32,000 nucleotides of DNA from Nanobdellota archaeon (GCA_042850255.1 AP031373.1:660001-692000); one strand, 5' to 3'. Positions 2,522 through 21,912 are shown, counted from the stretch's first letter. Notes: a model not told the origin generated them from the letters alone. Numbers and translations: made by a program.

Positions 2522-2797
2522 TTGATGAGTATAGCATTTAAGAAGAAAATATTATATTATATAAAATTAAGAAAATTAGGATATTCTATATATGAAATAA
2601 TAAGATTATTACCTATAGATAAAAAAGAAAAGGAGTTTTTAATAGAAGTAATAAGTTTAATAAAAATTATAGATGAAAAATTAATAAGAAATTATAATAA
2701 CTTAATTGAAGAATATGAAAATAAAATAAAAGAATATGAAGGAAGAATTAATAAAATAAAAAATAAGTATAGAGAATTAGAAAAGTTATATTTGTAA
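2522..2797 (+). CDS. Small hypothetical protein with a possible N-terminal HTH and C-terminal coiled coil
   Basis: 91 aa. The track start is TTG at 2522 and an ATG follows at 2525. The segment ILYYIKLRKLGYSIYEIIRLL resembles an HTH, followed by a heptad-like EEYENKIKEYEGRINKIKNKYRELEKL. The 3' end overlaps the convergent HEPN-like gene by 12 nt. Confidence 0.4.
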   Translation: MMSIAFKKKILYYIKLRKLGYSIYEIIRLLPIDKKEKEFLIEVISLIKIIDEKLIRNYNNLIEEYENKIKEYEGRINKIKNKYRELEKLYL

Positions 2798-4150
2798 AAT
2801 ATTATCATTTATTTCTCCCAAATCCACATTACTTAATAGTCTTCTTATTTCATTTTCATATTCTTTATCTTTATCTATTAATTTTAAGAATTTATTTTTA
2901 TCTAAAGGAACCTGCATAAAAATAAGTATAGATTCTCTTAGATATTCTAATAATCTTAATAACAATTTTGTTAATTTTCCTATTTCTTCTATAGATTTAT
3001 CGTTATCTGGTATTAAAGTTTCTCCGTGGGCATATGCATTTCTTATTCCATAAGCTTTTGATATATATTTCTTTATGCTGCTTCTTGTGAAATTTTTATT
3101 AGCTATCGATAAAACTTTTCTAATTCTTTTTCTAATTACTTTTTTCTTTTTTCCTTCTTCTTTTCCTAATGAATAAAGTGTTTCTAAACCAAATACTGCG
3201 CTAGTTATCCTATCTTCTATTAAATCATGTCTAAGTAAAGCATCATTATATTCTCCTATTGCTCTACCTATTGGATTAGAAAGGTCAGGATTTTTAAATA
3301 CATATATTGGTATCTTATCTTTTATTTTGTTATAAAATTCCATCAATCTTTTTCCATCTTCTTTGTTTATATGATAAATAGGTGTTTGTACATCTTCAGA
3401 ATAATAATTATCTAAAAATATACTAGGAGTAGAATGTGAAGATTTATCATCCAAAATTGTAAGTTTTCCTACTGTTAAATATACTGCACCTAATTTATAT
3501 AATCTAAGTGCTTGAAGAAATCTGAATAACTCTGTTTTAATTATTTCATCATCATAATTATCAACTGATAATGTAGATGATTCTATTTCTATTTCATATG
3601 ACGTAGAAGAGGATATTTGATTAATATATTTATGTGCTATACTAAGAATATCTGGAGATAAATATTTAGAGCATTCTTGATATAGATCTTCTATAATTTT
3701 TGGATTAAAGTTGGTTTTTCTTATAACTATATTTTCACTAATCTTTATTTCATTTTCATTAGAAGATACATTTTGTAATATAATGCTTGCTTTATATTTT
3801 ATATTTTTTCCTTCTAATCTTTTTATGAAATTATCTGATAATTCTTCTTTATCTACATATATGGATTCTGTAATAAAATCTTCTAATAATTTATCAAAGT
3901 CTATATATTTTATATATTCTTTATCTTTGTAGATATCATTTAATATCTTTACAAAACATTTAAATTTTTCAGAAGATTTGTACTTTCTTCTAACCTCTAT
4001 AGGAAATTTTTTAGAGGTTGCAGTCAAATCATCGTATATCTGTACCTTTTTTATATCCTTATTTTTTTCTTTCCATTCTTTTAATGATTGTTGGATGTCA
4101 TCTGCTATTGTATATAATATTGATCTTACAAGATTTATATTACGATCCAT
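2786..4150 (-). CDS. Large protein with a C-terminal HEPN-like domain (R-x4-H motif), putative RNase or abortive-infection-type effector
   Basis: 454 aa. The C-terminal helical region reads ...DRITSAVFGLETLYS...KAYGIRNAYAHGETL...LLRLLEYLRESI. R370 and H375 (codons 3043-3041 and 3028-3026) form RNAYAH, the HEPN Rx4-6H active-site signature. The N-terminal 300 aa are unassignable. Confidence 0.55.
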   Translation of the reverse strand: MDRNINLVRSILYTIADDIQQSLKEWKEKNKDIKKVQIYDDLTATSKKFPIEVRRKYKSSEKFKCFVKILNDIYKDKEYIKYIDFDKLLEDFITESIYVDKEELSDNFIKRLEGKNIKYKASIILQNVSSNENEIKISENIVIRKTNFNPKIIEDLYQECSKYLSPDILSIAHKYINQISSSTSYEIEIESSTLSVDNYDDEIIKTELFRFLQALRLYKLGAVYLTVGKLTILDDKSSHSTPSIFLDNYYSEDVQTPIYHINKEDGKRLMEFYNKIKDKIPIYVFKNPDLSNPIGRAIGEYNDALLRHDLIEDRITSAVFGLETLYSLGKEEGKKKKVIRKRIRKVLSIANKNFTRSSIKKYISKAYGIRNAYAHGETLIPDNDKSIEEIGKLTKLLLRLLEYLRESILIFMQVPLDKNKFLKLIDKDKEYENEIRRLLSNVDLGEINDNILQI

Positions 4151-4860: not shown

Positions 4861-6492
4861 ATGATAACAGAATTGTCTGAAGATAATAATTTAGTAGGAA
4901 ATAAAGCATCAAATTTATATAAAGCTAAAAAATTAAATATAAATATTCCAAAATCAATTGTTATTACAACGGATACATTTGAAGAATATATTAAAAATAA
5001 AGATATAAATAAAATATTGGATCAATTAGAAAAATATTTAGAAGATTTTAAAAGACCTTTAATATTTAGAAGTTCTACAAATATAGAAGATACATCTGAA
5101 AAATCTTATGCAGGAGTATTTAAATCAGTATTAAATATATATACAAAAGAAGATATGAAAAATGCAATAGAAACAATTTATCAGGATTTTATAAATAAAA
5201 ATATAAATGGAAAAATTGCAATATTAGTTCAGGAACAATTTAGTAAAGGAAAATTTGGAGTAATGTTCGGATTTGATAATAAAATTGTATTAGAAGTTGC
5301 AATAAATGATCCTGAGGGAATAACAAAAGGAAATGCAAAAATAAAAGATTTATATATAATAGAAAAAGATAATTACTATATTTATAATAATAGAAATTGG
5401 AATATATTATTTGATATTGAAATAAATAAAATAAAGGAAATTGATAAAGAATTGAGGAAAATATATTATCCATATGATGCAGAATTTGTAATATATAAAG
5501 GAGAATTTTATTTATTACAAATAAGACCTTTAACTAGAAAACCAAAATTAAATATTGGAAAATCAAATTTATATGGCATTGGAGTATCTTATGGTAAAGC
5601 AATTGGAAGGGTAACATTTTCTGATGAAAATTATGGAAAAGATAAAATATTAGTAGAAGATGAAATACCATTTGATGAAATAGATAAAATAAAAAATTTT
5701 GGTGGAATAATAATTGAACTTGGAACTTTATTATCTCATATATCTATCCATGCAAGAGAATATAATATTCCTGCAATAATTGGAATACCATCAAAATTCT
5801 TTAAAGAAGGTGAATTAATTGAAATTAATGGAGAAACTGGAGAAATTAAATTTTTAGAAAGAGAAGGATTTGAATTACCAAAAATTGAAAAAGAAGTAGA
5901 AATAGTAGATCCGAGAAAATTACAATTAATGGTTATTGATAAATATTCTTTTTTGTTATATCCTAAAGATAAATATAAAATAGTATATTATAGAGATAAT
6001 AGAGGATTAAATATTTTACTAAAATTATCTGAAGATCCTTTAGTAGATGGAGGAGAAGATAATTGGCATACTTATAATAATATTTTAGAATTATCATTAT
6101 TAGATTCTGAAATAAAGGAAGATTTTGAAAAAGCATTAGAAGTAGTAGATAAAGGAGATATTAATAAAATGAAGGAATTGTATAAAATATTTGTAAATAA
6201 AGTAAAAGAATATTATAAATATGCAGAAATAAATAGGGATATATATTATGCAGAAAAAGTATATTCATATATTAGAATAATTGATACAATGACAGTTATA
6301 TATGGACAAAAATTAAGAAATAATAAAGAATATGTAGAATTTATAAAGGAAACTGAAAAAGATGATGTAAAAGAATTTAGAGATATTTATTATTTATTGG
6401 ATAAAATATATGAAGAAATAAAGGATAAATATAAAATAGATAGAAAAGATTATACTTCTAACTTATCTTTCTTTATTGATTTATTAAAATAA
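4861..6492 (+). CDS. PEP synthase / pyruvate-phosphate dikinase-like protein: N-terminal ATP-grasp nucleotide-binding domain, phosphohistidine swivel domain and a non-canonical helical C-terminus
   Basis: 543 aa. The N-terminus (LVGNKASNL...IFRSSTNIEDTSEKSYAGVF...LQIRPLT) matches the PPDK_N/PpsA ATP-grasp. The segment GGIIIELGTLLSHISIHAREYNIPAIIG is the PEP-utilizer mobile domain, with the catalytic His at codon 5737-5739. The last ~210 aa are K/E/Y-rich helical with no PEP/pyruvate TIM-barrel features. Confidence 0.8.
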   Translation: MITELSEDNNLVGNKASNLYKAKKLNINIPKSIVITTDTFEEYIKNKDINKILDQLEKYLEDFKRPLIFRSSTNIEDTSEKSYAGVFKSVLNIYTKEDMKNAIETIYQDFINKNINGKIAILVQEQFSKGKFGVMFGFDNKIVLEVAINDPEGITKGNAKIKDLYIIEKDNYYIYNNRNWNILFDIEINKIKEIDKELRKIYYPYDAEFVIYKGEFYLLQIRPLTRKPKLNIGKSNLYGIGVSYGKAIGRVTFSDENYGKDKILVEDEIPFDEIDKIKNFGGIIIELGTLLSHISIHAREYNIPAIIGIPSKFFKEGELIEINGETGEIKFLEREGFELPKIEKEVEIVDPRKLQLMVIDKYSFLLYPKDKYKIVYYRDNRGLNILLKLSEDPLVDGGEDNWHTYNNILELSLLDSEIKEDFEKALEVVDKGDINKMKELYKIFVNKVKEYYKYAEINRDIYYAEKVYSYIRIIDTMTVIYGQKLRNNKEYVEFIKETEKDDVKEFRDIYYLLDKIYEEIKDKYKIDRKDYTSNLSFFIDLLK

Positions 6493-6509
6493 TTTCTTAA
6501 TTATTAAAA

Positions 6510-7580
6510 ATGGATAAGAAAATATATCTAGATTTAGATGGAACTCTTTTATCAAAATATTTGGATATATTAAATATCTTTAAAAAATATCTTGGAGATG
6601 AAGGATATAAAAAATTTGTTGAATTAGTAGAATTTAATAGAAAGTTGGGAAAGAAAGAAATATCTTTTATAGATATATTAAAACAAATTATAAATAATGA
6701 AGAAATTATTAAGAAAATATATAAAGAAATGAATAAAAAAATATTAAATCAAAATTTGGTAAATATTATAAGAAAAATGAAAAATAGAGGCTGGAAAATT
6801 GTTATTGTAACAAAGAATGAAGAAGTAGATAAATTATTGGAAATGTATAATATAAAAGATATTGCAGATGAAATAGTTATAACAAGGAAACCTGCATTTA
6901 TTAATGCAGATATTTATATAGGAAATGAAGAATATGAAGATATGTTATCTGGAAAATTGATGAATGCATTTACTATTAAAATTTCAGAATTGTCAGATAT
7001 TTCCATTAATTTTGATGATAATATTGAAGATATATTTGTTAATAATGAAGTATATAATTTTCTTTCAAAATATTATAACAATAAATTAAATATTTTATTA
7101 GATTTATTTAATGAAATTGGAATAAATAAAGATTCAAAGATATTGGATTTAAATAAATATTATGTGAAATATTTAAGAGAAAAAGGATATAATGTTTATG
7201 AAGATATTAATGATGAAAAATTTGATTTAATATATATTAATTCTTTTGATAAAGATATTTCAGAATTATTGAATGAATTAAAAAATATATTAAATAAAAA
7301 TGGATGGTTAATAATAAATATAGATAAAGAATTAAAGAATGAAGAAAGGAAAATAATAGACAATCCTAATATATTTGTATATATTCATATAATGCCAAAA
7401 GAAAAATATATTATTTATAAATATGAAATATATGAGAAAAATACCTGTAAAAAATATTTGGGAATAGTAAGAAAAATTAATTATAATATAGAAGATTGGA
7501 AAAATATATTAAAAATATTTAAAAATGTTATAATTAAAGAAATTGACGATGAATATTGGATAATAGTACAAAATAATTAA
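6510..7580 (+). CDS. HAD-superfamily phosphatase-like domain fused to a degenerate class-I methyltransferase-like domain
   Basis: 356 aa. HAD motif I is YLDLDGTL (residues 6-13). The C-terminal half, ILDLNKYYVKYLREKGYNVYEDINDEKFDLIYINSF...LKNILNKNGWLIINI, follows the spacing of MTase motifs I, II and III. However, the glycine-rich SAM loop (GxGxG) is replaced by NKYY. Confidence 0.55.
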   Translation: MDKKIYLDLDGTLLSKYLDILNIFKKYLGDEGYKKFVELVEFNRKLGKKEISFIDILKQIINNEEIIKKIYKEMNKKILNQNLVNIIRKMKNRGWKIVIVTKNEEVDKLLEMYNIKDIADEIVITRKPAFINADIYIGNEEYEDMLSGKLMNAFTIKISELSDISINFDDNIEDIFVNNEVYNFLSKYYNNKLNILLDLFNEIGINKDSKILDLNKYYVKYLREKGYNVYEDINDEKFDLIYINSFDKDISELLNELKNILNKNGWLIINIDKELKNEERKIIDNPNIFVYIHIMPKEKYIIYKYEIYEKNTCKKYLGIVRKINYNIEDWKNILKIFKNVIIKEIDDEYWIIVQNN

Positions 7581-7596
7581 ATATAATTTTTTATAT

Positions 7597-9513
7597 TTAA
7601 AAATAAGATAAATAATCCCTAATTATCCCAAATTTTTCTTTAAGATAAATATCTAATTTATATCCAGATCCTTCCTCTATAAAATCATTAACATCAAATC
7701 CATATTTTTCTTTTATTTTCTTTCTTATAATATTCCACAATTTTTTCCTTTCATCCCAAACATCATATTTATCAGATAAATTCTTCCACTTTTCTAATAC
7801 TTTATATAATTTATATATTTCTTCCCCCTTATAATTTTCAATATTTGCTAATACTAATCTATAATCTCCATATTTCATTGCCAATTCTCTTAATTTTCTA
7901 ATTCCATATCCTAAGGATATTAATGTATTTGCAATTCCAAAATATCTAGCAGATAAATCTATTAAATCTAAAATTTTTATATAATCCTTTAATTCATTTA
8001 CTCCGCTTTTATATAACTTATATCCTTCATAAAAACTTTTTCTAGCTAATTTCATACTTTCTCTTAAATATTTGTCTAATTCTTCAGGATTATCTAATAA
8101 TTTTTTACCTTTTTCAACCCATTCTTTCAATCCTTTATGAATTAAGAATCCATATATCCATTCAACATAATTCCAATGAACATCACTATGACCTTCTATT
8201 GCATTTAATTTTTCCAATATATTTTTCTTTATATTATTATCAATATTATTACTAAAATATAAAATATTATTACCCATATATTCTTCAAATAAAACTATTT
8301 TTTCAGGATTTTTTATTACTTCAATTTCATTTACTTTTTCTAATGTATTTATATCTAAAGGAGTTAAATCTAATGTAAAATCTGATAAATAATCTAGTAA
8401 TTTTATAGTTTTCTTTCCAGGATAATATACTTTACCATTATCTGCATCAACAAATAAAGGAGTTCCGTCCTTTATTATTTCTAATAATCCTTTTACTCCA
8501 ACTACAGTGGGAATTCCAAATTCTCTAGCAACAATTGCAGAATGAGATGTAATATTTCCTATTTCATTTACAATTCCAATTGCCTTTAACATATCTGGCA
8601 TCCAATCATTATAAGTAGTTTTCGATACTAAAATTTCTCCAGGTTTTAAATTTTCCAATTCTTTTTTATCTTTAATTATTCTTGCTAATCCATATACTTT
8701 TCCAGTACCTGTTGGTATTCCTTCTAAATATCCCCAATCTTTTGGAACATTAAATTCAAATTCTTTCCTTTTCTTATAAGTTATTGGTCTAGCTTGGAAA
8801 ATATATATTTTATCTTTTACTCCAAATTCTACATCAACAGAAAATCCGAAATATTTTTCTATTTCAATTATATTTTTTGCAATATTAATTATCAATTCTT
8901 TATCTAAATTAAAATATTCTCTTTTAATTTTAATATCAAAATTATTTTTATCTATATAATAAATATTTGTATTACCTTTTCCAGATACAACATTTTCTGT
9001 CAACCCTTTACTTATTTCTATTACAACTTCATCCTTATTTTCAAATATATTCTTTGAAAATCCAACTCCTCCATAATCTGTATTAATAAATTCTTGAACA
9101 ACAATACCCATTTTTATTTCAACTTCTTCATCTAATAATTCTAAATATTTTTTAACCTTTTCAGAATTTACAGATTTATATATTTCTTTTATACTATTTA
9201 ATAATTCTTCAAAATTATTTATGGGAAATATTGATATAAATTGACCTGCAAAAGAATGATAAATTAAATCTTCAATTGTTGCAGAACTTCTAGCAATAAC
9301 AGGAAAATTTAATTTATTTAAATATTCATTTAATTCTTCAATAAAATTATATGGAAAATCATTATTTTTTATATAATAATCATATACTTCTGTTGTTATA
9401 ACAAAACCTTTTGGAACATTAAATTTATTTATTAATTTAGATAAAGATAATGCTTTACCTCCAACTAAATTTAAATCTGAAGATTTATCTAATGGTAAAA
9501 TAAATTTATTCAT
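7597..9513 (-). CDS. PEP synthase / pyruvate-phosphate dikinase-like protein: ATP-grasp, phosphohistidine swivel domain and a non-canonical ~270-aa C-terminal domain
   Basis: 638 aa. The N-terminus is LVGGKALSL...VIARSSATIEDLIYHSFAGQF...FQARPIT. The swivel domain is VNEIGNITSHSAIVAREFGIPTVVG, with the catalytic His at codon 8544-8542. The C-terminus (...HSDVHWNYVEWIYGFL... then helical) resembles the C-terminus of the 4861-6492 protein (...DNWHTYNNILELSL...). It does not resemble a PEP-binding barrel. Confidence 0.8.
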   Translation of the reverse strand: MNKFILPLDKSSDLNLVGGKALSLSKLINKFNVPKGFVITTEVYDYYIKNNDFPYNFIEELNEYLNKLNFPVIARSSATIEDLIYHSFAGQFISIFPINNFEELLNSIKEIYKSVNSEKVKKYLELLDEEVEIKMGIVVQEFINTDYGGVGFSKNIFENKDEVVIEISKGLTENVVSGKGNTNIYYIDKNNFDIKIKREYFNLDKELIINIAKNIIEIEKYFGFSVDVEFGVKDKIYIFQARPITYKKRKEFEFNVPKDWGYLEGIPTGTGKVYGLARIIKDKKELENLKPGEILVSKTTYNDWMPDMLKAIGIVNEIGNITSHSAIVAREFGIPTVVGVKGLLEIIKDGTPLFVDADNGKVYYPGKKTIKLLDYLSDFTLDLTPLDINTLEKVNEIEVIKNPEKIVLFEEYMGNNILYFSNNIDNNIKKNILEKLNAIEGHSDVHWNYVEWIYGFLIHKGLKEWVEKGKKLLDNPEELDKYLRESMKLARKSFYEGYKLYKSGVNELKDYIKILDLIDLSARYFGIANTLISLGYGIRKLRELAMKYGDYRLVLANIENYKGEEIYKLYKVLEKWKNLSDKYDVWDERKKLWNIIRKKIKEKYGFDVNDFIEEGSGYKLDIYLKEKFGIIRDYLSYF

Positions 9514-9666: not shown

Positions 9667-9774
9667 ATTTTGTATCTTAATACAAAATATTTAATTTATA
9701 AAATATTATTTTTTGTATTGGAATACAAAACTTCTATATTATATAGATAATATTTTTTGTATAGAGATACAAAA
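9667..9774. repeat. Array of three perfect palindromes TTTTGTAT-N4-ATACAAAA spaced 43-44 bp apart
   Basis: IR1 is 9667-9688 (ATTTTGTAT cTTA ATACAAAAT, 9-bp arms). IR2 is 9711-9730 (TTTTGTAT TGGA ATACAAAA). IR3 is 9755-9774 (TTTTGTAT AGAG ATACAAAA). Centres are at 9677.5, 9720.5 and 9764.5. An extra half-site GAATACAAAAC lies at 9825-9835. Confidence 0.6.
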
Positions 9775-9904: not shown

Positions 9905-10045
9905 CATAGCCCCATCATAATCAGGGGCTCCTGCACTCGACTTCCGTAAATGGCCCCTTCACATGCATCTGGGGCCGTTGCTTCAATGCTTCACTGCGCC
10001 CTAAATGGCTCCCTCATCTTATCCAGAGCCGTTGCTACACTGAGC
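9905..10045 (-). ncRNA. Candidate structured non-coding RNA of unknown class (GC-rich island with three G:C-stem hairpins); strand assignment is tentative
   Basis: About 54% G+C by hand count, against about 25% in the flanks. The hairpins are 9908-9913/9924-9929, 9952-9957/9971-9976 and 10007-10011/10026-10030. Hairpins 2 and 3 sit in a 55-nt tandem repeat whose stem substitutions are compensatory. The minus strand is favoured because stem 3 gains a U:G pair there (C.A on plus). In addition, the loops become GA-rich and K-loop-like on that strand (CUGA-UUA-UGAUG). Confidence 0.45.
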
Positions 10046-10124: not shown

Positions 10125-10472
10125 ATGTCAGAACAAACAAAGACAATTGATAAAGAAATATTAAATAAAATTAAACAAATTATTTTAGATACTGCTAATA
10201 CTTATAATATTAAAATTCACAAAATTATTTTATTTGGATCTAGAGCTAGAGGAGATTACAGAGAATATTCAGATTGGGATATATTAATTGTAACTGAAGA
10301 TAAATTAGATAAAGAATTAGAAGATAATTTTTATTTAGAGGTTGGAAGGAAATTGGTAAAACTTAATATAATTCCTGAAATTATTATATCTGCTAAAGAA
10401 GAATTTGAAAAATATAAGTATTTAAAAGGCTTTATATATTATTGGGCAGATAAGGAAGGAATAATATTATGA
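10125..10472 (+). CDS. mntA: Minimal nucleotidyltransferase (MNT) antitoxin of a HEPN/MNT module
   Basis: 115 aa. ILFGSRARGDYREYSDWDILIV is the G-S-x9-11-D-x-D polymerase-beta-type NTase motif. Its stop overlaps the start of the downstream HEPN gene by 4 nt (ATGA). Confidence 0.8.
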   Translation: MSEQTKTIDKEILNKIKQIILDTANTYNIKIHKIILFGSRARGDYREYSDWDILIVTEDKLDKELEDNFYLEVGRKLVKLNIIPEIIISAKEEFEKYKYLKGFIYYWADKEGIIL

Positions 10473-10843
10473 ACGAAGATCTAAAAGAATTATTAGAATC
10501 TGCTAATGAAGATTTAGAAGCAGCAAAAATATTGTTAGATAAAAATTTATTTAAATCATCTGCTTTTTATTGTCAGCAATGTGTAGAAAAATACTTAAAG
10601 GCATATCTATTATATAAAACGGGATCTTACCCATTTATCCATTCTATAAAAAATTTAATTGAGCTTTGTATAAATGTAGATAAAGAATTTAATTATTTAT
10701 ATGATATAAATGCCGATAAATTAGATAAATATTATACAGGTACAAGATATTTCCCATTTTTAAAAATTACAGAAGAAGATGCAAAAGAAGCAATAGATAT
10801 TGCAGAAAATGTAAGAGAATTTATTTTAAAGAAATTATCTTAA
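10469..10843 (+). CDS. hepT: HEPN domain protein (putative toxin partner of the MNT)
   Basis: 124 aa, all-helical. The segment A.EDLEAAKILLDKNLFKSSAFYCQQCVEKYLKAYLL...HSIKNLIELC...GTRYFP follows the classic HEPN (PF05168-type) pattern. It is translationally coupled to the MNT gene. Confidence 0.75.
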   Translation: MNEDLKELLESANEDLEAAKILLDKNLFKSSAFYCQQCVEKYLKAYLLYKTGSYPFIHSIKNLIELCINVDKEFNYLYDINADKLDKYYTGTRYFPFLKITEEDAKEAIDIAENVREFILKKLS

Positions 10844-11266
10844 TTTTTCTTCTATTATTTTAATTAATTTTTCCGATAAAGATTTAACAAATTCCAAATA
10901 ATTTTTTGCCTCTTCTTCAGATATTTCTAATCCATAATATTTACTCTTATGTCTTTTATCTCTTAAATTATCTAACTTTAATATTATATCTTCCGAAAAT
11001 CCTAATTTTCTTAAATATGATATATCTGCAATATGTGAATAACTTTTATAACCATCCAAAGATAATATGGCATCTATTAATTCTATAATAGATTCATATG
11101 CAAATTCTAATTTAAATTTGGGAATCTTTAATTCTTCTGCAACCTTTAATCTTTCTGTTGCAGTTTTTAATAAAGATTTTGCTAAATTTATATCTTTTAC
11201 ATAAGTTCTTTTTATATCTCCTTTTTCTATAAAATATTCAAAATCTGGTATCATATTTTTATCCAA
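10835..11266 (-). CDS. HEPN domain protein (second module)
   Basis: 143 aa, helical. It contains ...LAKSLLKTATERLKVAEEL... and LDNLRDKRHKSKYYG, an R/H-containing HEPN-type motif. It overlaps the upstream wHTH-MNT gene by 16 nt, and its 3' end overlaps the convergent HEPN gene by 9 nt. Confidence 0.65.
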   Translation of the reverse strand: MDKNMIPDFEYFIEKGDIKRTYVKDINLAKSLLKTATERLKVAEELKIPKFKLEFAYESIIELIDAILSLDGYKSYSHIADISYLRKLGFSEDIILKLDNLRDKRHKSKYYGLEISEEEAKNYLEFVKSLSEKLIKIIEEKLR

Positions 11267-11763
11267 CCATATAATTTTACCCCATTTAAAATATTTTCTA
11301 ATAATTCTTTAGGATAATTTTTTATATCTCCAGAAAATACTTGTATTTTCCTAGATAATTCTTTTTCAAATTTTTCTAAATTTATTTCAAAATTTTTATA
11401 TCCGATATATAAATCTATATCAGATTTTTCAGTATCTGTTCCATAAGAATAAGATCCAAACAATATTATAACATCTGGAGAATAATTATCAACTAAATAA
11501 TTAACTAAATCTTTTAAAGATAAAATATTATATAATCTCTTTAGTTCTATAAAATATTTATTTTCAAGATTTCCTCTAATTAAATTAATTTTTTCTTTTC
11601 TTTCTATTGTTATTAAATTTTCATTTTCCAATTCCTTTATTATTTTTATTATGTAAGTATGTGAGATACCAGATAATTTTGCTATTTCTCTTATACTTAA
11701 ACCCTTTGTAGGATATTTAAATATTGGTATCAAAACTTTCCACTTGGTATCAAAAATTTCCAT
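11251..11763 (-). CDS. Winged-HTH fused to a minimal nucleotidyltransferase (DNA-binding MNT antitoxin)
   Basis: 170 aa. The N-terminal segment LSIREIAKLSGISHTYIIKIIKELENENLI is an HTH. The C-terminal VIILFGSYSYGTDTEKSDIDLYIG is the GS...DxD NTase motif. Confidence 0.8.
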   Translation of the reverse strand: MEIFDTKWKVLIPIFKYPTKGLSIREIAKLSGISHTYIIKIIKELENENLITIERKEKINLIRGNLENKYFIELKRLYNILSLKDLVNYLVDNYSPDVIILFGSYSYGTDTEKSDIDLYIGYKNFEINLEKFEKELSRKIQVFSGDIKNYPKELLENILNGVKLYGWIKI

Positions 11764-12873: not shown

Positions 12874-14127
12874 TTAAATATGATTACTATCCTTATAATA
12901 CCAATACCTATATTTTTCGTTTTTTACTAGACCTTTATTTTTTAATTTTCTTAATATATAATATAACACTGGATTATCATATCCTGTATGTTGTGATAAT
13001 TCTTCAATACTTAATTTTTTATATTCTTTTAGTACTTCTAAGACTCTATTTATTTTTTCCTCCTTATATCTTTTTGAATTAATATATAGATTAATAAGTT
13101 TTGATATTTCTTCTTTATTTAAACTATAATCTTTATAATTATACAATTTAAAAGGATTTTCCGATACTTCTTTAATTTCTTCTATAAGATTATATAATTC
13201 AAGTAATTTTTCAGTAGGTTTTATTATAAAATTCTTATCTTTACCTTCCAATATCTTTAAATGCACAAGTACTGATATTATATCCTTAATAGTTCTCTCA
13301 TTCTTTTCATACTTTTTAACCAAATCATAAATATTTGATATAGGTTCCTTACTTTTTACAATATCTCTTATAACTCTTTTAAGAACCTTAAGATTAAATC
13401 TTCCATAATCCGCCTTTTCTTTTATATATTCCCTTATTTCATAGTTGTCTTTCCTATAAATATTTTTATAAATTTTTATAGCTTCTTTACGATTAATTTT
13501 ATAATATTCATCTAAATTCTTTGGTTCTTCATATTTTATTAATCCATAATCTTTAAGTTCTTCTAAATCATATCTAATACCTTCTGCTTTAGCATTTATA
13601 TTTTTAGTTATACTTTTAATACTCGTATTCTCTTTATTTTTTACAATATATTCAATTATTTTTAACTTATTTGATACTTTATTACTTTTATTAACATTTA
13701 ATATATCTTGAGGATTAATTCCTAATTCTATAAATCTTTTTAATACATAAGATATAAAACCTTTTGTTAGTTCTCCAAAAGATGATAGTTTATAACAAAT
13801 TTTTCCATTATTGTATACTTCTTCAGTTACTCCTATTTCTGTTAATATCCCCCTTCCTTCTCTATTCTTTATATAAGATTCATAGGTTGAATCTTCTACA
13901 GGTATAATTTCTTCATAATTTTTTGGGTTTTTTATTATATCATCTAAAGATAAATTAAGTAATCTTGCTGTACTTTCCATTAAACTTTTTCCATTACAAT
14001 ATAACTCATCTTTTTCTAAAGATAAATGGGTAATTGTTCTATGTAAGTTATTAAATAATAATATAATACTTATAAGTCTTTCCTCCTTTGATTTTTTAAT
14101 AAACTCCTCTAATGTGGTATTAGTCAT
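12874..14127 (-). CDS. Tandem winged-helix family protein, long class (paralog F, about four wHTH units)
   Basis: 417 aa. The family motifs are TLEEFIKKSKEERL, YKLSSFGELTKGFISYVLKRFIELGINPQDIL, IIEYIVKNK and IIKPTEKLLELYNLIEEIKEVSENPFKLYNYKDY. The terminal wHTH is LSIEELSQHTGYDNPVLYYILRKLKNKGLVKNEKYRYWYY. Confidence 0.7.
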   Translation of the reverse strand: MTNTTLEEFIKKSKEERLISIILLFNNLHRTITHLSLEKDELYCNGKSLMESTARLLNLSLDDIIKNPKNYEEIIPVEDSTYESYIKNREGRGILTEIGVTEEVYNNGKICYKLSSFGELTKGFISYVLKRFIELGINPQDILNVNKSNKVSNKLKIIEYIVKNKENTSIKSITKNINAKAEGIRYDLEELKDYGLIKYEEPKNLDEYYKINRKEAIKIYKNIYRKDNYEIREYIKEKADYGRFNLKVLKRVIRDIVKSKEPISNIYDLVKKYEKNERTIKDIISVLVHLKILEGKDKNFIIKPTEKLLELYNLIEEIKEVSENPFKLYNYKDYSLNKEEISKLINLYINSKRYKEEKINRVLEVLKEYKKLSIEELSQHTGYDNPVLYYILRKLKNKGLVKNEKYRYWYYKDSNHI

Positions 14128-14160
14128 TATATAATAGTAAAAATAATTTTTAAAATACTA
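14128..14160 (-). promoter_or_regulatory. Conserved promoter/leader cassette TTTAAAAATTA-N5-6-ACTATTATATA-ATG (copy upstream of paralog F)
   Basis: The minus strand reads TAGTATTTTAAAAATTATTTTTACTATTATATA-ATG. Near-identical cassettes precede paralogs E and B. The A/T box is centred about 23 nt before the ATG, which is consistent with an archaeal TATA box and a leaderless transcript. Confidence 0.45.
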
Positions 14161-14232
14161 ATTCAGGTATTTGTTTTAAAATAATATAAAATTTTCTGGA
14201 GAATATAATATACTAAAATAAAATTTAAAATA

Positions 14233-15339
14233 CTATTTACTTTCCTTATTATATATTTCTATTAATTTTTTAATCTTTTCTTCTTTCAATTTATATCCTT
14301 TATAATTATATAATTTATAAGGATCCCTAGATACTTCTTCAATTTCTTTTATAACATTATATAATTCAAATAATTTTTTAGTTGGTTCTATTGATATAAT
14401 AGTTTTTATATTATAACTATTATTTTCTAATATTCCTAAAAAATTTAGTATTTTTATTATATCCATTGCAGCCTCATAATTTATTCCTAATTTTTTCATT
14501 AAATCTTCTGCATTAATTTCTTTTTTATTTTCATAAATATTTATTATATATCTTATAGATTTTTTTATATTTTTAGAATTAAATCTTTTATAGCCAGTTT
14601 CTTCTTCTATATATCTTCTAATTTTATCATTAATTTTTAAATTTTTTATTATTTGATCGTATTCCCTTGCTTTATCTATATTTATATAATATACAGATTC
14701 TTTATTATTATTATAACTTATTCCTTTACCTACTATTAATCCTCTATACATCATGTTTTTTAGATGATACCTTAATAAATTATCCTTTATATTTAATTTT
14801 TTATAAATTTCTGTTAAATTTATTTTTTTATTTGTTTTATATTCATTTACTATATATTCTATTATTCTTATCTTATCATTTGGATAATATCCTTCTCTAT
14901 TACCTTTATTTATGTAGAATATATATTTTGGAGATATTTCTAATTCCACAAATTTTTCTAAAATATATGATATAAATCCTTTAGTCAATTCTCCAAGATA
15001 TGATAATTTATAACCTGTTCTATTATTTTTATCTTTTGCTATTATAATTATTCCAAGTTCTAATAATTTATTATATAAATCTTGTCTATGTTCACTAGGT
15101 TTCAATGGCAAAAATTCTTTATATAAATCATAATTATTCTTTACATCTTCTTTATTTAATCTCATATTATTTAAAATATCTTTTATTATTTCTCCTTTAT
15201 TATAATAAATTTTTCCTTCTTTCAAAGATATATTGATAATAAATCTTCTAGTATTTGATAACAATAATATCAATGTATCTAGCCTTTTTTCTATAGTTTG
15301 ATTAATAAAATTATCTAATGAATTATCTTTATTTATCAT
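14233..15339 (-). CDS. Tandem winged-helix family protein, long class lacking the terminal wHTH (paralog E)
   Basis: The ORF track extends to 15378 (MVCYLKINCNYYI...). Alignment to the paralogs (SLDNFINQTIEKRL) and the conserved ACTATTATATA-ATG cassette support the Met at 15339, giving 368 aa. The family motifs are YKLSYLGELTKGFISYILEKFVELEISPKYIF and IEPTKKLFELYNVIKEIEEVSRDPYKLYNYKGY. Confidence 0.7.
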   Translation of the reverse strand: MINKDNSLDNFINQTIEKRLDTLILLLSNTRRFIINISLKEGKIYYNKGEIIKDILNNMRLNKEDVKNNYDLYKEFLPLKPSEHRQDLYNKLLELGIIIIAKDKNNRTGYKLSYLGELTKGFISYILEKFVELEISPKYIFYINKGNREGYYPNDKIRIIEYIVNEYKTNKKINLTEIYKKLNIKDNLLRYHLKNMMYRGLIVGKGISYNNNKESVYYINIDKAREYDQIIKNLKINDKIRRYIEEETGYKRFNSKNIKKSIRYIINIYENKKEINAEDLMKKLGINYEAAMDIIKILNFLGILENNSYNIKTIISIEPTKKLFELYNVIKEIEEVSRDPYKLYNYKGYKLKEEKIKKLIEIYNKESK

Positions 15340-15375
15340 TATATAATAGTTACAATTAATTTTTAAATAACATAC
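15340..15375 (-). promoter_or_regulatory. Conserved promoter/leader cassette (copy upstream of paralog E)
   Basis: The minus strand reads GTATGTTATTTAAAAATTAATTGTAACTATTATATA-ATG. It overlaps the last codons and stop (15356-15358) of the coiled-coil gene. Confidence 0.4.
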
Positions 15376-16309
15376 CAATTTTATTCTTTAAATCCATTAT
15401 ATTATAATTATTTAATAAATCATTTATATCAGAATAATTGATTTTTTCAATATTCATCTTAATATTTGCCAGTTTTTCAGAAATTTCAAATGAATTATTA
15501 TAATTATATAATTTTATTAAAAATTCAATAAAATATGTTTTATATTTTATTTTCTCTAATATTTGATCAATATAATTTATATCTGAAGATTCTATTTCTT
15601 TTATTAAACTATTTCCTATTATCTTTATTCTTTCATAAATTTTTATTATATTTTCAACATTATTAATATCCAATTTATTAAATTCATCCAATAATTTCTT
15701 TTCTAAATCTACTAAATAAATATAATCAATTTTATATGAGTCTTTCCCTATGTTGTCTATTTTTCTATCATAATAATATTTTGGTAATTTAGTAAATATT
15801 TCATTATAGATTTTCTTAAAATCTTTGTATGCATCTTTAAATTTATCATAAAATATCCTTAAATTATCTATACCATCTATAAGATATAAATAACTCCATA
15901 TTTCCTTATTATTTTCAATATAATTAATTAAATAGTCTAGTTGTTTATTTAATATATTAATTTTTTCATTTATTTTATTTAAATTATATTTTATATCAAC
16001 AATTTCTTTTGCTTTATTAATATCTCTTAAATGGTAATATATAATAGATATATCCTTTATTCTTTCGGATTTATCCATTATATCTTTTATTTTTTTAATT
16101 TTTTCCTTTTCTATATTTATCATTTTTATTTTTATAGAATTGTTTAGATAATAATTTAGGTATGAATTTATTTCTTTTAATTTATCATTTAAATAACTTA
16201 TAACAAATTCTTCATTTTCATTATTTTCTTTAAATTTTTTAGCATTATTAATAACATTTTCTAATATTTCATTAATTATACATAAATCATCACAATTCTT
16301 GAAATTCAT
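15356..16309 (-). CDS. Coiled-coil / all-helical protein embedded in the winged-helix paralog block (gene D)
   Basis: 317 aa, extremely N/I/K/E/Y-rich with long heptad-like runs (KINEKINILNKQLDYLINYIENNKE). It lacks the family motifs of its neighbours. Its start overlaps the upstream paralog by 20 nt. Confidence 0.55.
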   Translation of the reverse strand: MNFKNCDDLCIINEILENVINNAKKFKENNENEEFVISYLNDKLKEINSYLNYYLNNSIKIKMINIEKEKIKKIKDIMDKSERIKDISIIYYHLRDINKAKEIVDIKYNLNKINEKINILNKQLDYLINYIENNKEIWSYLYLIDGIDNLRIFYDKFKDAYKDFKKIYNEIFTKLPKYYYDRKIDNIGKDSYKIDYIYLVDLEKKLLDEFNKLDINNVENIIKIYERIKIIGNSLIKEIESSDINYIDQILEKIKYKTYFIEFLIKLYNYNNSFEISEKLANIKMNIEKINYSDINDLLNNYNIMDLKNKIGMLFKN

Positions 16310-17273
16310 TATATTTATTCTTTAATATATCAATCAGATTTTCTTTATATATCTCAGAATATTGAGAATATTTTTTCAAATTATTTATATCATTGGATAT
16401 ATCATTAATAGGTTCTATTACTTTTTCATGAAATTCTATTAACTTTCTAGTTGGTCTTATATAAACAGATTTTTCTTTATCTTCTCTATTAAGTACTTTA
16501 TACTTTCTTAATTCTTCTAATATACTTTCTATATATCTAATATTATAATCATTTAAATAATCAGCAATTTCTGAAGCATCTATTATAGTTTTTTGGCATT
16601 CTTTTAAATATTCTAATATTTCTTTAATTTTATCAGGATCTGACAATTTTTTAATTTCCCTATTTTTTATTTCATTATAAAATTTATCAATATTGTCAAT
16701 ATTAATGCTATATATTTTCCTAATATAAACTATAAAATTAAGATCTTCTAACAATTTCAAAGTCTTTATTATATAAGTTGAAGATATACCTTTCTTATCC
16801 AAATTTTCTTCCAATTTTCTTCTAGTAATATATTGATCTTTATCTTCTGCAATATAATCTATTAAATTTACGAAGTCTTCTATTCTAATATTTTTAAAAA
16901 TATTTTCAACATTCAATCCAATTATTATAGAATTGTAGAATATATAAGATATAAATCCCTGGAAATTTGCTCCTAATTCAGATAACTTATAACCATTTTT
17001 ATATTTTTCTACTAATTTCATATTTTCAAGATCTTCTATATACTTATCTTTTTCATAATATTTATCAGGATCTAAATATAAATATTTCAAAAGTAGATCA
17101 TTATTTGAAGCTAGGTTAGAAATTATATTTATTATATCAGTACGAATATCTTTTTTTGATAGCATTTGATCTAGAGTTCCCATTATATAATGGTAACAAT
17201 ATATTTTTTTAAATATGCTACGATCAAAGTAATTTTTATGAAAATTATTCATCATAACACCATTTATTATCAT
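16290..17273 (-). CDS. Tandem winged-helix family protein, short class (paralog C)
   Basis: 327 aa as tracked. The true start may be the ATG at 17255/17252 overlapping the stop of paralog B, or 17183 (MGTLDQML aligns with MDGLDKII of paralog G). The family motifs are DLLLKYLYLDPDKYY, YKLSELGANFQGFISYIFYN and IRPTRKLIEFHEKVIEPINDISNDINNLKKYSQY. Confidence 0.65.
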   Translation of the reverse strand: MIINGVMMNNFHKNYFDRSIFKKIYCYHYIMGTLDQMLSKKDIRTDIINIISNLASNNDLLLKYLYLDPDKYYEKDKYIEDLENMKLVEKYKNGYKLSELGANFQGFISYIFYNSIIIGLNVENIFKNIRIEDFVNLIDYIAEDKDQYITRRKLEENLDKKGISSTYIIKTLKLLEDLNFIVYIRKIYSINIDNIDKFYNEIKNREIKKLSDPDKIKEILEYLKECQKTIIDASEIADYLNDYNIRYIESILEELRKYKVLNREDKEKSVYIRPTRKLIEFHEKVIEPINDISNDINNLKKYSQYSEIYKENLIDILKNKYNEFQEL

Positions 17274-18486
17274 CTCTTTTTACAATCCCCATTTTTTCTA
17301 ATCTTTTTAATGTATATGATAATGTTCCTGTATTATATTTAGTATATTTACTTATTTCACTTAATGTTAAACATTTATTCTTATTTAAAATATCAATTAT
17401 TTTATCTTCTTTTTCTTGAAGATCCTTTTTCCATTTATAATATATAACTAATAATTTTGTTATATCATCTTTCGTTAATTTATTTTCATATATTTTATAA
17501 TCTTTTATTTTATCGGGATTTTTTGATATTTCTTTTATTGGTAATATTATTTCATTATATATATTAACTAATTCATTATTGATTTGAATATAAGATTTAT
17601 TTATTTTTTCTTTATTAATTACATCTTCTTTACTAAGAATAGATATATATTTATTTATTATAACAAGACTCATACCTCTTTTATTTATTAATTCTCCAGG
17701 ATCTAATATAGATTTTTCATTTTTTATAATATAATTTAATATATATTCAATATTTTCAATACTATAATTACTAATTTTATATTTTTTCATTTCTTCTTCT
17801 GGATTTTCATATAATTTATTATAATATTCCTTTGCCTTATCTAAATTTACCTTATATATTATAATAGGTTGTCTATTTTTATTATAAATTATTAATCCTA
17901 ATTTGGATAATCTAAACAATATTAATCTAACTATAGATTCTGATAATTTGTATGTATCTTCAATATCCTTCATACCTATTTTCTTATCCTTATTTTCTAC
18001 AAGATATTCTATTACATTTATTGTATTTACAGGATTTGCCTTTTCAACAGATTTTCTAGTATGACCAAATAATTCATAAGGATTTATGTTAAATTTTACA
18101 TACTCTTTTAACAAATAGTTTAAAAAACCTTCTATATCTTCTCCAAAAGAAGATTTAATATATCTATTTTTATCTACTTCTATAATTATCCCAATTTTAG
18201 TTAATATTCCTTCTTTTTCATTTATTGTTGATAAATATTTAAAATAAGTAGTAGATCCTGGTATAATATCTTTTACTTTAACATTATTATCTATTATATC
18301 ATCCAAATTTTTTCCTATAAATTCTAAAAAATCGTTTCTAATCTCTTCTCCATTTTTATAAATTTTTCTTCTTTTTAATGATAAAATAGTTAACATTCTT
18401 ATTATGTGATTATTTATTCTTGACAAATCTTCTAATCTTTTATCTTCAGGTTGTTTTTTAAAATCTTCTATTGTATAGTCTTTCAT
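17245..18486 (-). CDS. Tandem winged-helix family protein, long class (paralog B, about four wHTH units)
   Basis: 413 aa. The family motifs are TIEDFKKQPEDKRL, SSFGEDIEGFLNYLLKEYVKFNINPYELF, VIEYLVENK and ELVNIYNEIILPIKEISKNPDKIKDYKIY. The terminal wHTH is LTLSEISKYTKYNTGTLSYTLKRLEKMGIVKRDDNKWCY. Confidence 0.7.
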   Translation of the reverse strand: MKDYTIEDFKKQPEDKRLEDLSRINNHIIRMLTILSLKRRKIYKNGEEIRNDFLEFIGKNLDDIIDNNVKVKDIIPGSTTYFKYLSTINEKEGILTKIGIIIEVDKNRYIKSSFGEDIEGFLNYLLKEYVKFNINPYELFGHTRKSVEKANPVNTINVIEYLVENKDKKIGMKDIEDTYKLSESIVRLILFRLSKLGLIIYNKNRQPIIIYKVNLDKAKEYYNKLYENPEEEMKKYKISNYSIENIEYILNYIIKNEKSILDPGELINKRGMSLVIINKYISILSKEDVINKEKINKSYIQINNELVNIYNEIILPIKEISKNPDKIKDYKIYENKLTKDDITKLLVIYYKWKKDLQEKEDKIIDILNKNKCLTLSEISKYTKYNTGTLSYTLKRLEKMGIVKRDDNKWCYDE

Positions 18487-20349: not shown

Positions 20350-21912
20350 ATGGGGTTTCCAGTTGATGTAGATTTTTTGAGGAATAACATAGAATTATAT
20401 AAAGAAACTTTTAAAAAAAGAGGGTTGGACGAAAGTTTAGTAGATAAGGCTATAGAATTGGATAATAAAAGAAGGGAGTTACAAAGGGAAGTAGATAAAT
20501 TAAAACATAAGAAAAATTTATATTCAAAGTTTTATGGTTATGCATTACAATATAAAAATGGAAAAATTAGTAAAGAAGAATTTATTAAAAATGCAATAAA
20601 TTTGGGATTTGATATACATGAGGGAGATATTGATTTAGAAAGATTAAAGGAAGATATAAAAAATATTGATGAAGAAATATTAAAAAAGGAAGAGGAATAT
20701 AAAAATGTAGAAAACAATTTAATAGATTTATTATGGAACTTTTCAAATTTATTATCTCCAGAAGTTCCAATAGGTGATGAAAGTAACAATACTCCAGTAA
20801 GGTTTTGGGGAGTACCAAGGGTATATGATATAAATTTATTTAAAGAACAGACTGAAAGATTTGGATGGAAAATAATAGAAATAGCAAATATAGATGAAAA
20901 ATATGTAAAAAATAAAGAATTATTAAAAGAATTAATTGAAATGTTAGATGATAAAAAAGATTTTACAGAAATAAACTTTAATGATGTATTAGATTTTGAA
21001 AAATTAAATCAAGATAAGATTGTTGTATATAAAAAAGTAAATCATGAATTAAAGCATCAGTATGATATATTAAAAGAATTTAATTTAGCAGATACAGATA
21101 TTGCAGGAAACGTTTCAGGATCAAGATTTTACTTTGAATTTAACGCATTATCATTATTAGATTTAGGATTAAGTTTAGAAGGAGTAAAATATATGATGAA
21201 AAAAGGTTATAAATTTACAATACCTCCATATATGTTAAAAAGAGATATATTAGATGGAATAATTACTTTAGATGATTTTGCAGATATGATGTATAAAATT
21301 GATGGAGAAGATTTATATTTAATAGGAACTGCAGAGCATCCTATTACTGCATTATATTATAATTCTATAATAAATGAAGATGAATTACCAATAAAAATTA
21401 CAGGATGGAGCCCATGTTTTAGAAAAGAAGCTGGAGCACATGGAAAAGATACAAAAGGATTATTTAGATTACATCAATTCCATAAAGTAGAACAATATAT
21501 ATTTTGTAAACCTGAAGATTCTGAAAAATATCATCAAGAATTAATAAAAAATGCACAAGAATTTCTAGAAAAATTAAATATTCCATATAGGACTGTAATA
21601 ATTGCATCAAAAGATATGGGAAAAAGGAATTATAAACAGTATGATATAGAAGGATGGTTCCCTGGACAACAAAAATATAGGGAATTAATATCAGGATCGA
21701 ATGTTACAGACTGGCAAGCAAGGAGATCTAATATTAGATATAGGAAAAAAGATAATAGTTTAGAATATGTACATACACTAAATTGTACATTAACTGCAGT
21801 ACAGAGAACAATAACATGTATATTAGAAAATAATTATGATTATAAAAATAATAGAATATATATACCAAAGATATTACAAAAGCATTTAGAGGGAGAATTT
21901 ATATCAAAATAA
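20350..21912 (+). CDS. serS: Seryl-tRNA synthetase (bacterial/common type) with unusual insertions
   Basis: 520 aa. There is an N-terminal coiled-coil arm. Class II motifs include GSRFYF, LIGTAEHPITALYYN, CFRKEAGAHGKDTKGLFRLHQFHKVEQY and YDIEGWFPGQQKYRELISGSNVTDWQARR...HTLNCTLTAVQR. Confidence 0.9.
   Translation: MGFPVDVDFLRNNIELYKETFKKRGLDESLVDKAIELDNKRRELQREVDKLKHKKNLYSKFYGYALQYKNGKISKEEFIKNAINLGFDIHEGDIDLERLKEDIKNIDEEILKKEEEYKNVENNLIDLLWNFSNLLSPEVPIGDESNNTPVRFWGVPRVYDINLFKEQTERFGWKIIEIANIDEKYVKNKELLKELIEMLDDKKDFTEINFNDVLDFEKLNQDKIVVYKKVNHELKHQYDILKEFNLADTDIAGNVSGSRFYFEFNALSLLDLGLSLEGVKYMMKKGYKFTIPPYMLKRDILDGIITLDDFADMMYKIDGEDLYLIGTAEHPITALYYNSIINEDELPIKITGWSPCFRKEAGAHGKDTKGLFRLHQFHKVEQYIFCKPEDSEKYHQELIKNAQEFLEKLNIPYRTVIIASKDMGKRNYKQYDIEGWFPGQQKYRELISGSNVTDWQARRSNIRYRKKDNSLEYVHTLNCTLTAVQRTITCILENNYDYKNNRIYIPKILQKHLEGEFISK

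Follow-up and report, generated by a model that had tools for sequence, protein, structure and literature searches.

The subject of this analysis is a three-gene locus in a 32,000-nucleotide stretch of DNA from a Nanobdellota archaeon (AP031373.1:660001-692000), the whole of which is referred to here as the window. With a G+C content of approximately 20%, HEPN/MNT pairs, and many winged-helix proteins, the window has an archaeal look, and the product of gene B, one of the three genes, matches the database entry "hypothetical protein YN1_7570 [Nanoarchaeota archaeon]" at 100% identity. YN1 is a Nanobdellota archaeon that lives as an ectosymbiont of Sulfurisphaera ohwakuensis and has a genome of 773,326 bp (PMC11420986).

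Translation of the open reading frames (ORFs) confirmed that genes A, B, and C lie at the positions given in the original prediction, which had been made from the sequence alone, and that B is flanked by A and C on either side, the intergenic spacers measuring 17 bp and 16 bp. A and C are related to the phosphoenolpyruvate (PEP) synthase PpsA and to pyruvate phosphate dikinase (PPDK), with another domain in place of the PEP/pyruvate-binding triosephosphate isomerase (TIM) barrel. In C, this third domain, designated the C-domain, recurs in other archaea within operons that resemble those of ribosomally synthesized and post-translationally modified peptides (RiPPs). Gene B encodes a protein with a haloacid dehalogenase (HAD)-like part. 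The genes and their domains are as follows.

4861..6492, + strand: gene A, barrel-less dikinase-like protein of a Nanoarchaeota-only family (ORF, 543 aa; Pfam PPDK_N and PEP-utilizers)
4879..5544, + strand: A, shortened ATP-grasp nucleotide-binding domain (approximately aa 7-228; PPDK_N, E = 2.4e-21)
5638..5841, + strand: A, phospho-His swivel domain (aa 260-327; PF00391, E = 7.9e-13), His293 codon at 5737-5739
5860..6489, + strand: A, C-terminal domain (aa 334-543) in place of the TIM barrel, beta unit and then helical bundle (AlphaFold)
6510..7580, + strand: gene B, orphan HAD-like fusion protein (ORF, 356 aa), HAD part at aa 7-125 (6528-6884)
7597..9513, - strand: gene C, barrel-less dikinase-like protein of a rare archaeal family associated with a RiPP-like operon (ORF, 638 aa)
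8773..9483, - strand: C, ATP-grasp nucleotide-binding domain (approximately aa 11-247; PPDK_N, E = 5.1e-42)
8434..8646, - strand: C, phospho-His swivel domain (aa 290-360; PF00391, E = 3.7e-22), His324 codon at 8544-8542, motif GNITSHSAIVAREFGIP
7600..8418, - strand: C, C-terminal C-domain (aa 366-638), putative acceptor-binding domain (AlphaFold, profile searches)

Dikinase modules without a PEP/pyruvate barrel

The presence of a PpsA-type ATP-grasp domain and a swivel domain in both A and C, as originally proposed, is confirmed by the Pfam families PPDK_N (PF01326) and PEP-utilizers (PF00391), and the codons that had been quoted for the catalytic His residues are correct, namely 5737-5739 for H293 of A and 8544-8542 for H324 of C. 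According to family alignments, each of these residues is invariant, H293 across the A family and H324 across the C family. The motifs GNK, RSS..ED, D-x-E-F, and Q-x-R-P are retained in A and are invariant in its family, and C aligns to the PEP synthase structures 8a8e (E = 5e-42) and 2ols of the Protein Data Bank (PDB), with the motifs GGK, RSSATxED, DxEF, and QxRP.

The absence of the TIM barrel is equally clear, as no match to Pfam PEP-utilizers_C (PF02896) was obtained in A or C. Sequence matches in the PDB to PEP synthase and to rifampicin phosphotransferase (RPH; 5hv2) end at approximately aa 332 in A and at aa 365-376 in C, which is the end of the swivel domain, and in hhalign comparisons with the barrel region of PpsA, as represented by eight genuine archaeal proteins, the C-terminal profiles of A and C remained unaligned (probability 0.3-0.5%). 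Both proteins fall far below the cut-offs of the curated families, with 209.2 bits (C) and 53 bits (A) against 739.75 for PEP synthase (TIGR01418), 144.5 and 44.1 bits against 999 for RPH (NF041857), and 199.7 bits (C) and 59.9 bits (A) against 1300 for PigC/RedH (NF052631). The swivel domain is central (aa 260-327 in A; aa 290-360 in C), with 210-270 aa beyond it, so that the domain order is PpsA-like rather than RPH-like, as had been noted. The view that A and C are not genuine PEP synthases is thus supported by the missing barrel and by the wide margin to the family cut-offs, and the proteins are predicted, from their sequences and structural models, to be unable to bind pyruvate or PEP in the manner of PpsA.

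It had also been considered that the two genes might be fragments of one decayed ppsA. This is ruled out by the whole ATP-grasp and swivel module present in each gene and by ratios of nonsynonymous to synonymous substitution rates (dN/dS) of 0.22 for C, compared with its relative at locus L005, and 0.26 for A, compared with that at locus L017, at dS values of 0.2-0.3. Both A and C are under purifying selection, and because C in addition keeps all residues that are invariant in its family, its product is probably active.

The region beyond the swivel domain corresponds to the beta-then-helical composition originally described for it, with a small beta unit, long helices, and no alpha/beta barrel in the AlphaFold models. 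The last 273 residues of C, in which long helices come after a few short strands, are modeled with a predicted local distance difference test (pLDDT) score of 91.9 and a predicted template modeling (pTM) score of 0.88; the last 210 residues of A show the same order of elements, with pLDDT 87-98 in the helical part. The domain remains unassigned, as first stated, since no Pfam family was found for either C-terminus and no relative among PDB structures. Foldseek searches of the PDB gave no match for the C-domain of C (best E = 0.3, template modeling (TM) score < 0.3) and, across PDB chains, nothing at E < 0.2 for either C-terminal model, RPH structures included. The PDB profile matches that did appear were de novo designed helical proteins and were rejected as a composition artifact.

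Whether A and C share this domain, as had been suggested, is plausible and not proven. The BLASTP alignment of A with C is limited to the first approximately 413 residues (30% identity, 7e-34). Between the C-termini, hhalign with shallow profiles gave P = 0.0023, and with a 17-sequence profile that included distant C-domains gave P = 3e-5, with a probability of 73% over 173 collinear columns, pairing DGGxDxWHxY with EGHxDVHWNY, the two motifs on which the suggestion had been based, and YGQK with GYGIRK. Together with the common element order, these profile comparisons indicate that the C-terminal domains of A and C are probably distant homologues.

Both families are small. Full-length relatives of C comprise seven sequences at 56-86% identity, which come from a Nanopusillaceae metagenome-assembled genome, from contigs of hydrothermal-vent and other metagenomes, and from Pyrococcus kukulkanii. 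A further relative has 35% identity, and the remaining matches cover the N-terminal domains only. A hidden Markov model (HMM) search for the C-domain yielded 15 representatives among 1.84 billion proteins, the C-domain profile finds the proteins P0134, P0136, P0137, P0138, and P0143 at E = 6e-32 to 3e-13, and a metagenome scan with a narrower C-domain alignment added just two further loci. For A, seven full-length relatives were found at 61-89% identity, and every named one is from Nanoarchaeota, i.e. Nanobdella aerobiophila (labeled "phosphoenolpyruvate synthase"), Nanoclepta minutus, and NZ13-N; a genome scan with the C-terminal domain of A returned Nanobdella and Nanoclepta only. Three Nanoarchaeota genera, whose genomes are very small, have kept the gene while its neighbors change. 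A is thus a diverged paralogue found in Nanoarchaeota only, and its acceptor is probably a related one. Named members of the A family are labeled as PEP synthase, as pyruvate, water dikinase, or as hypothetical, and those of the C family as "PEP/pyruvate-binding domain-containing protein"; no support was obtained for any of these labels, and those naming PEP synthase, pyruvate, water dikinase, or PEP/pyruvate binding are probably wrong.

Operons containing the C-domain

In five archaeal lineages, the C-domain belongs to a shared operon that comprises a precursor ORF, a SPASM-type radical S-adenosylmethionine (SAM) gene, a PqqD gene, the C-domain itself, either stand-alone or fused to the dikinase module, and often an aminopropyltransferase gene. 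At loci L012/L013 and L014-L016, genes for a radical SAM enzyme (321-325 aa), PqqD (84-96 aa), the dikinase (716-735 aa), and an aminopropyltransferase resembling SpeE follow one another, and the downstream half is found again at L023, as the dikinase, the SpeE-like gene, a 326-aa protein, and a second radical SAM gene. The order at L002-L004 is precursor, radical SAM, a dikinase 63% identical to C, and SpeE-like, and at L018 a variant consists of the dikinase, an alpha/beta hydrolase, and a radical SAM-SPASM enzyme, along with a swivel-only protein. At L024-L026, the precursor, radical SAM/SPASM, and PqqD genes are followed by a stand-alone C-domain, P0137, and a 344-aa protein. At L010, the radical SAM gene is followed by an overlapping gene (1213-2763) for the fusion protein P0138, which consists of PqqD, a dead swivel domain in which the His is replaced by Glu (site GGNIMSETAIKARQHNIACMV), and the C-domain, and which represents a natural kinase-dead version without ATP-grasp. 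Gene overlaps join the radical SAM, PqqD, and dikinase genes.

The closest resemblance of the radical SAM enzymes is to peptide maturases of the SPASM/twitch type (WgkB, PapB, MftC, PqqE, AlbA), far under every curated cut-off, and the enzyme of L010 is 32% identical (E = 7e-33) to that encoded before the nanoarchaeal P0002. For the latter enzyme, viperin was considered as an identity on account of a pVip match at 1.9e-20 and was rejected, as the viperin equivalog model gave 61 bits against a cut-off of 180; NCBIfam models indicate only generic similarity to radical SAM enzymes.

Directly upstream of each radical SAM gene lies a small ORF whose product ends in the motif ...(T/S)AC(Y/V)(G/A)xxGCD. 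The C-terminal sequences are listed by locus.

L012: ...FTACYGKDGCDDEDH
L010: ...FTACYGNQGCDD...
L015: ...FSACVAKDGCDT...
L025: ...LTACYGRDGCDE...
L002: ...LQMCYAKDGCD (stop)

In a six-frame translation of 263 kb of loci, the window included, the pattern C-x4-G-C-[DE] occurred only in the small ORFs before these radical SAM genes, in four lineages, and it was also found in a fifth lineage outside those 263 kb.

The SpeE-like gene lies immediately downstream of the dikinase gene in five lineages, namely P. kukulkanii (L001), a vent contig (L002-L004), the relative of YN1 (L005/L017), and two distant lineages (L012/L013/L023 and L014-L016). Its products are full-length, match PF01564 and PF17284, and retain GxGEG, D..YHE, and YD....D as invariant motifs, the acidic residue of the GGG(D/E)G motif being the one that selects decarboxylated SAM. 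With scores of 171-196 bits against equivalog cut-offs of 250-260, they are assigned by sequence to a divergent subfamily of polyamine aminopropyltransferases. The dikinase/SpeE-like pair stands alone, without a radical SAM gene or precursor nearby, in P. kukulkanii, L005, and L017. In P. kukulkanii (L001, 8001-10712), the two proteins are 56% and approximately 51% identical to the nanoarchaeal versions, and the region around the pair is variable and contains PIN/MazE toxin-antitoxin genes and ORFs of no known function; horizontal transfer of the pair between Nanoarchaeota and Thermococcales is suggested.

A conserved protein of 326-344 aa is also encoded after the C-domain or SpeE-like gene (L012, 7411-8391; L025, 3640-4674), with 24% identity between the two versions (E = 2e-8) and a weak PRTase-CE match (E = 6e-4); the L012 version is followed by a second radical SAM gene, which is of the NrdG/PflA activase-like type. 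Literature searches for the gene combination of the operon found no description of it. Judging from gene content, the operon probably represents an apparently undescribed archaeal RiPP-like pathway, and possibly a new pathway class.

Within the window of YN1, this pathway is stripped down, with C alone present and its SpeE-like neighbor replaced by the orphan gene B. The closest relative of the locus, L017, carries orthologues of A (89% identical) and C (85% identical) and shows A rightward, followed by the SpeE-like gene and C leftward, so that A and C are tail-to-tail in both YN1 and L017. In a DNA alignment, the flanks of the two loci are homologous and the middle parts (B and the SpeE-like gene, respectively) unrelated. 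The SpeE-like gene of L017 is split into two ORFs. L017 also contains, at 2955-3061, a 107-bp relic of the 3' end of a second C-type gene (residues 599-635; 89% DNA identity to window positions 7610-7719), which directly adjoins the stop codon of the orthologue of A and precedes the SpeE-like gene and the full C gene. The relic is evidence of module replacement at the locus and suggests that A and C were ancestrally tail-to-tail, with later insertion of the SpeE-like gene plus C in the relative and of B in YN1. The substrate of C in YN1 may be encoded at another place in the genome, or it may be a new one. A short resemblance between KFDLIYINSFD and KYDIIYFDLTD led to consideration of B as a diverged or inverted SpeE-like gene; hhalign gave a null result, the intervening DNA is unrelated, and the idea was rejected.

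Candidate reaction and alternative explanations

Several characterized systems resemble A and C in part. PEP synthase (TIGR01418) and PPDK have the same succession of ATP-grasp and swivel His and the same GGK, RSSxxxED, DxEF, QxRP, and TSH motifs, whereas their PEP/pyruvate TIM barrel of approximately 320 aa is absent from A and C, in which an unrelated helical domain is found instead. RPH (PDB 5fbs, 5hv1; PMC4844700) is likewise a barrel-less dikinase, in which phosphate moves from ATP via the swivel His to an acceptor other than PEP that is bound by a helical domain, and it has significant sequence matches in both shared domains; however, its order is ATP-grasp, rifampicin (RIF)-binding domain, and swivel, with the His C-terminal, whereas the acceptor domain comes last in A and C. 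In PigC/RedH/HapC (NF052631; PMC13534948), ATP-grasp and swivel His phosphorylate a substrate oxygen for nucleophilic displacement, although these enzymes have an RPH-like order, another middle domain, pyrrole substrates, and a setting in bacterial pigment clusters. Since PigC and HapC activate their substrates by phosphorylation, they provide a precedent for activation instead of decoration. That the ATP-grasp, swivel, and acceptor modules can be recombined or separately encoded is illustrated by phenylphosphate synthase and HpeHI (PMC12167813) and is comparable to P0137 and the swivel-only protein of L018, but the acceptor modules of these two systems are derived from the barrel and bind phenols, and neither system is connected with radical SAM, PqqD, or precursor genes.

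With regard to peptides, the pyrroloquinoline quinone (PQQ), mycofactocin, and sacti-/ranthipeptide pathways share with the neighbors of the C family elsewhere a short precursor whose C-terminal core is conserved, together with PqqD and a radical SAM enzyme of the SPASM type. Unlike the C-domain operons, none of the described PqqD-dependent radical SAM/SPASM pathways was found with a dikinase module or an aminopropyltransferase, and the partner genes do not occur in the window. Microcin C is a ribosomal peptide ending in Asp/Asn that carries a phosphate and a SAM-derived group, and MccD/MccE aminopropylate the peptidyl phosphoramidate. It thus offers a precedent for an aminopropylated phosphate on a peptide. 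Its likeness to a dikinase and a SpeE-like enzyme encoded beside a ...GCD peptide is an analogy only; the enzyme families differ entirely (MccB catalyzes adenylation, and MccD is not SpeE-like).

Taken together, it appears reasonably probable that C serves as the phosphotransfer enzyme of a RiPP-like pathway, of which YN1 retains a reduced form, and that A and C are His-relay phosphotransferases with a swapped acceptor domain. By domain content, both are members of the PEP-utilizing "His-swivel dikinase" superfamily, the barrel having been exchanged for a rare, mostly helical, putative acceptor domain. In the mechanism that we infer by homology, the ATP-grasp domain would bind ATP, the swivel His (H324 in C, H293 in A) would take the beta-phosphate with release of AMP and Pi, and the swivel domain would carry the phosphoryl group to a substrate on the C-terminal domain. 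By analogy with PpsA, PPDK, and RPH, the third domain would be the place of phosphate delivery by phospho-His, and on the most economical view, the C-domain would hold a peptide or a derivative of it for phosphorylation by the fused module. The genes that accompany the C family, for a precursor, a radical SAM/SPASM enzyme, PqqD, and an aminopropyltransferase, likewise point to a peptide or peptide-derived substrate. The substrate of the C family would then be the precursor peptide, modified by the radical SAM enzyme or not, or a product thereof; phosphorylation would decorate or activate it, and the SpeE-like enzyme would add an aminopropyl group. In several lineages, the PpsA-type ATP-grasp and swivel module is fused ahead of the C-domain, with the SpeE-like gene coming next. 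It would follow that neither A nor C can make PEP and that B is a bystander and not a partner. Of the substrates originally envisaged, a metabolite, an antibiotic-like compound, or a macromolecule, the last is favored by the peptide-type partners of the C family, while the accompanying notion of a phosphatase is not upheld.

Several observations weigh against this interpretation. Some C-domain proteins lack a kinase module (P0137) or have a swivel domain that is dead (P0138), so the primary role of the C-domain may not be to accept phosphate. The window contains no C-x4-GC[DE] ORF, tblastn detected no trace of radical SAM, SpeE-like, or precursor sequences in it, and no PqqD gene was found within the 32 kb. 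A-family loci never adjoin radical SAM or PqqD genes, which makes the peptide idea weak for A, and the HMM search of 1.84 billion proteins with the C-domain of C did not recover the A family. To our knowledge, no phosphorylated or aminopropylated peptide of this kind has been reported. A more far-reaching proposal, advanced tentatively and regarded as rather doubtful, is that of a new and largely DPANN-like class of archaeal ribosomal peptides, in which a ...TACYGxDGCD core would be cross-linked by the SPASM enzyme, phosphorylated through the His relay, and aminopropylated by the SpeE-like enzyme, while Nanobdellota such as YN1 would have re-used the dikinase modules C and A on another substrate, possibly related to the host or the cell surface. 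No description of this combination of cross-link, phosphorylation, and aminopropylation was found for any RiPP or peptide-derived cofactor.

Among the competing explanations, the peptide, radical SAM, and PqqD genes might form a separate neighboring system, with C and the SpeE-like enzyme acting on a small molecule, for example by a phosphorylation that activates a polyamine or its precursor. The solitary dikinase/SpeE-like pairs of P. kukulkanii, L005, and L017 are in line with this, as are the small-molecule substrates of all characterized barrel-less relatives (RPH, PigC/HapC, phenylphosphate synthase, and HpeHI), but it is rendered unlikely by the fusion of the C-domain to a PqqD peptide-recognition element in P0138, by stand-alone C-domains inside precursor/radical SAM/PqqD operons that lack SpeE, and by the overlap of radical SAM, PqqD, and dikinase genes into one transcription unit. 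A true PEP synthase whose barrel is encoded by a separate gene, comparable to other split genes in Nanoarchaeota, is highly improbable. The annotations of named relatives, the best scores of the two N-terminal domains being those against PpsA models, and the absence of the pyruvate-to-PEP step from the missing steps in the YN1 paper would fit such a split. However, both proteins run on for 210-270 aa into a conserved, well-folded domain that is not a barrel, no barrel ORF was found in the window, the PEP synthase scores of 209 bits (C) and 53 bits (A) contrast with the required 740, and the relatives of C reside in radical SAM/PqqD operons and not beside genes of central metabolism. The loss of partner genes from the locus, the split SpeE-like gene of L017, its replacement in the window, and the relic of C in L017 could also mean that the pathway has decayed, with C, and perhaps A, left behind in YN1 without a present function; against this, and making it decidedly unlikely, stand full-length ORFs with all family-invariant residues, a dN/dS of approximately 0.2 relative to a homologue at dS 0.2-0.3, and the persistence of the A family in three Nanoarchaeota genera with very small genomes.

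The remaining alternative is the original one, in which the three genes form a functional unit, with A and C phosphorylating and B dephosphorylating one common substrate. Apart from the tight packing of the genes (17-bp and 16-bp spacers), it has in its favor that the N-terminal part of B has a HAD fold (HAD_2, E = 7.9e-8, 33.0 bits against a cut-off of 23.8, aa 7-125) with an intact motif I (DxDGT, as LDLDGTLL). The HAD_2 profile, however, is matched only to position 128 of 178, TIGR01488 gives 29.3 bits against a cut-off of 45, and the region of motif IV, read from the translation as IGNEEYED, appears degenerate, with GN..E.D instead of GD...D. Moreover, a search of 5.8 billion proteins found no homologue of B other than B itself (YN1_7570), none was found near the A orthologues of Nanoclepta and Nanobdella, and no B-type or HAD neighbor was present at any other A- or C-family locus examined. 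As the same slot holds a SpeE-like gene in the closest relative, with unrelated DNA between conserved flanks, the arrangement is not conserved, and a phosphorylating and dephosphorylating cassette is considered very unlikely.

These proteins also bear on models of carbon metabolism. The YN1 paper places the gluconeogenic gap only between 3-phosphoglycerate and glyceraldehyde 3-phosphate, without listing pyruvate to PEP as missing (PMC11420986), and a highly abundant "PEP synthetase" serves in the Nanopusillus paper as a diagnostic gluconeogenic enzyme; for that protein (Nps_02680), membership in the A family is no more than a possibility. Should the A and C families be unable to make PEP, carbon-metabolism models of these minimal symbionts would need revision, and if the new peptide class existed, the "PEP synthase" of Nanoarchaeota gluconeogenesis schemes would not. 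The combination of PpsA domain order with a putative acceptor domain unseen before represents a new architecture in the dikinase superfamily and would broaden the range of reactions served by the phospho-His swivel. Few RiPPs are known from archaea, and the operon offers a testable candidate for a new archaeal peptide modification.

Further features of the window

Upstream of gene C, three palindromes of the form TTGTAT-N4-ATACAA are present, which occur nowhere else in the window.

9670-9685, 9713-9728, and 9757-9772, no strand assigned: three TTGTAT-N4-ATACAA palindromes (exact matches), possible operator array

Shuffling gave an expectation of 0 exact copies against the 3 observed. Spaced by 43-44 bp and located 157-260 bp upstream of the start of C, the triplet looks like a transcription-factor operator array.

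Between C and a nearby MNT/HEPN pair lies a GC-rich island of approximately 140 nt (9908-10045; approximately 55% G+C in a genome of 20%). It contains three hairpins with GGCYCC/GGRGCC stems, two of which are followed by GCCGUUGCU. No Rfam family was matched (best sR14, E = 0.67), and folding z-scores of -2.3 and -2.0 were obtained; the island is a candidate structured RNA. The locus is flanked by an Apea-like HEPN gene (2786-4150, 454 aa) and by two nucleotidyltransferase/HEPN-type pairs (10125-10843 and 10835-11763), the second of which consists of a 170-aa winged helix-turn-helix and nucleotidyltransferase protein and a 143-aa partner without a Pfam match. The neighborhood thus looks rich in toxin-antitoxin or defense genes. 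A defense-system identity for the locus itself was also considered and rejected, as PADLOC returned no match for A, B, C, or the SpeE-like protein and no known system was recognized.

Farther along the window, five genes on the same strand (12874-18486; 417, 381, 317, 327, and 413 aa) may form an array of paralogous regulators. Two of the products have a C-terminal winged helix of the CasR/Csa3-like type, one has a sub-threshold HTH_10 match, and two have no Pfam match. A seryl-tRNA synthetase of 520 aa is encoded at 20350-21912, in which an unusually long insertion of approximately 210 residues separates the N-terminal arm (aa 6-106) from the catalytic core (aa 319-495); the Nanobdella version has 523 aa. 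Finally, one ORF of 546 aa at 28723-30363 combines a POR gamma-type part (aa 12-158) and a POR_N alpha-type part (aa 192-417) of pyruvate:ferredoxin oxidoreductase.

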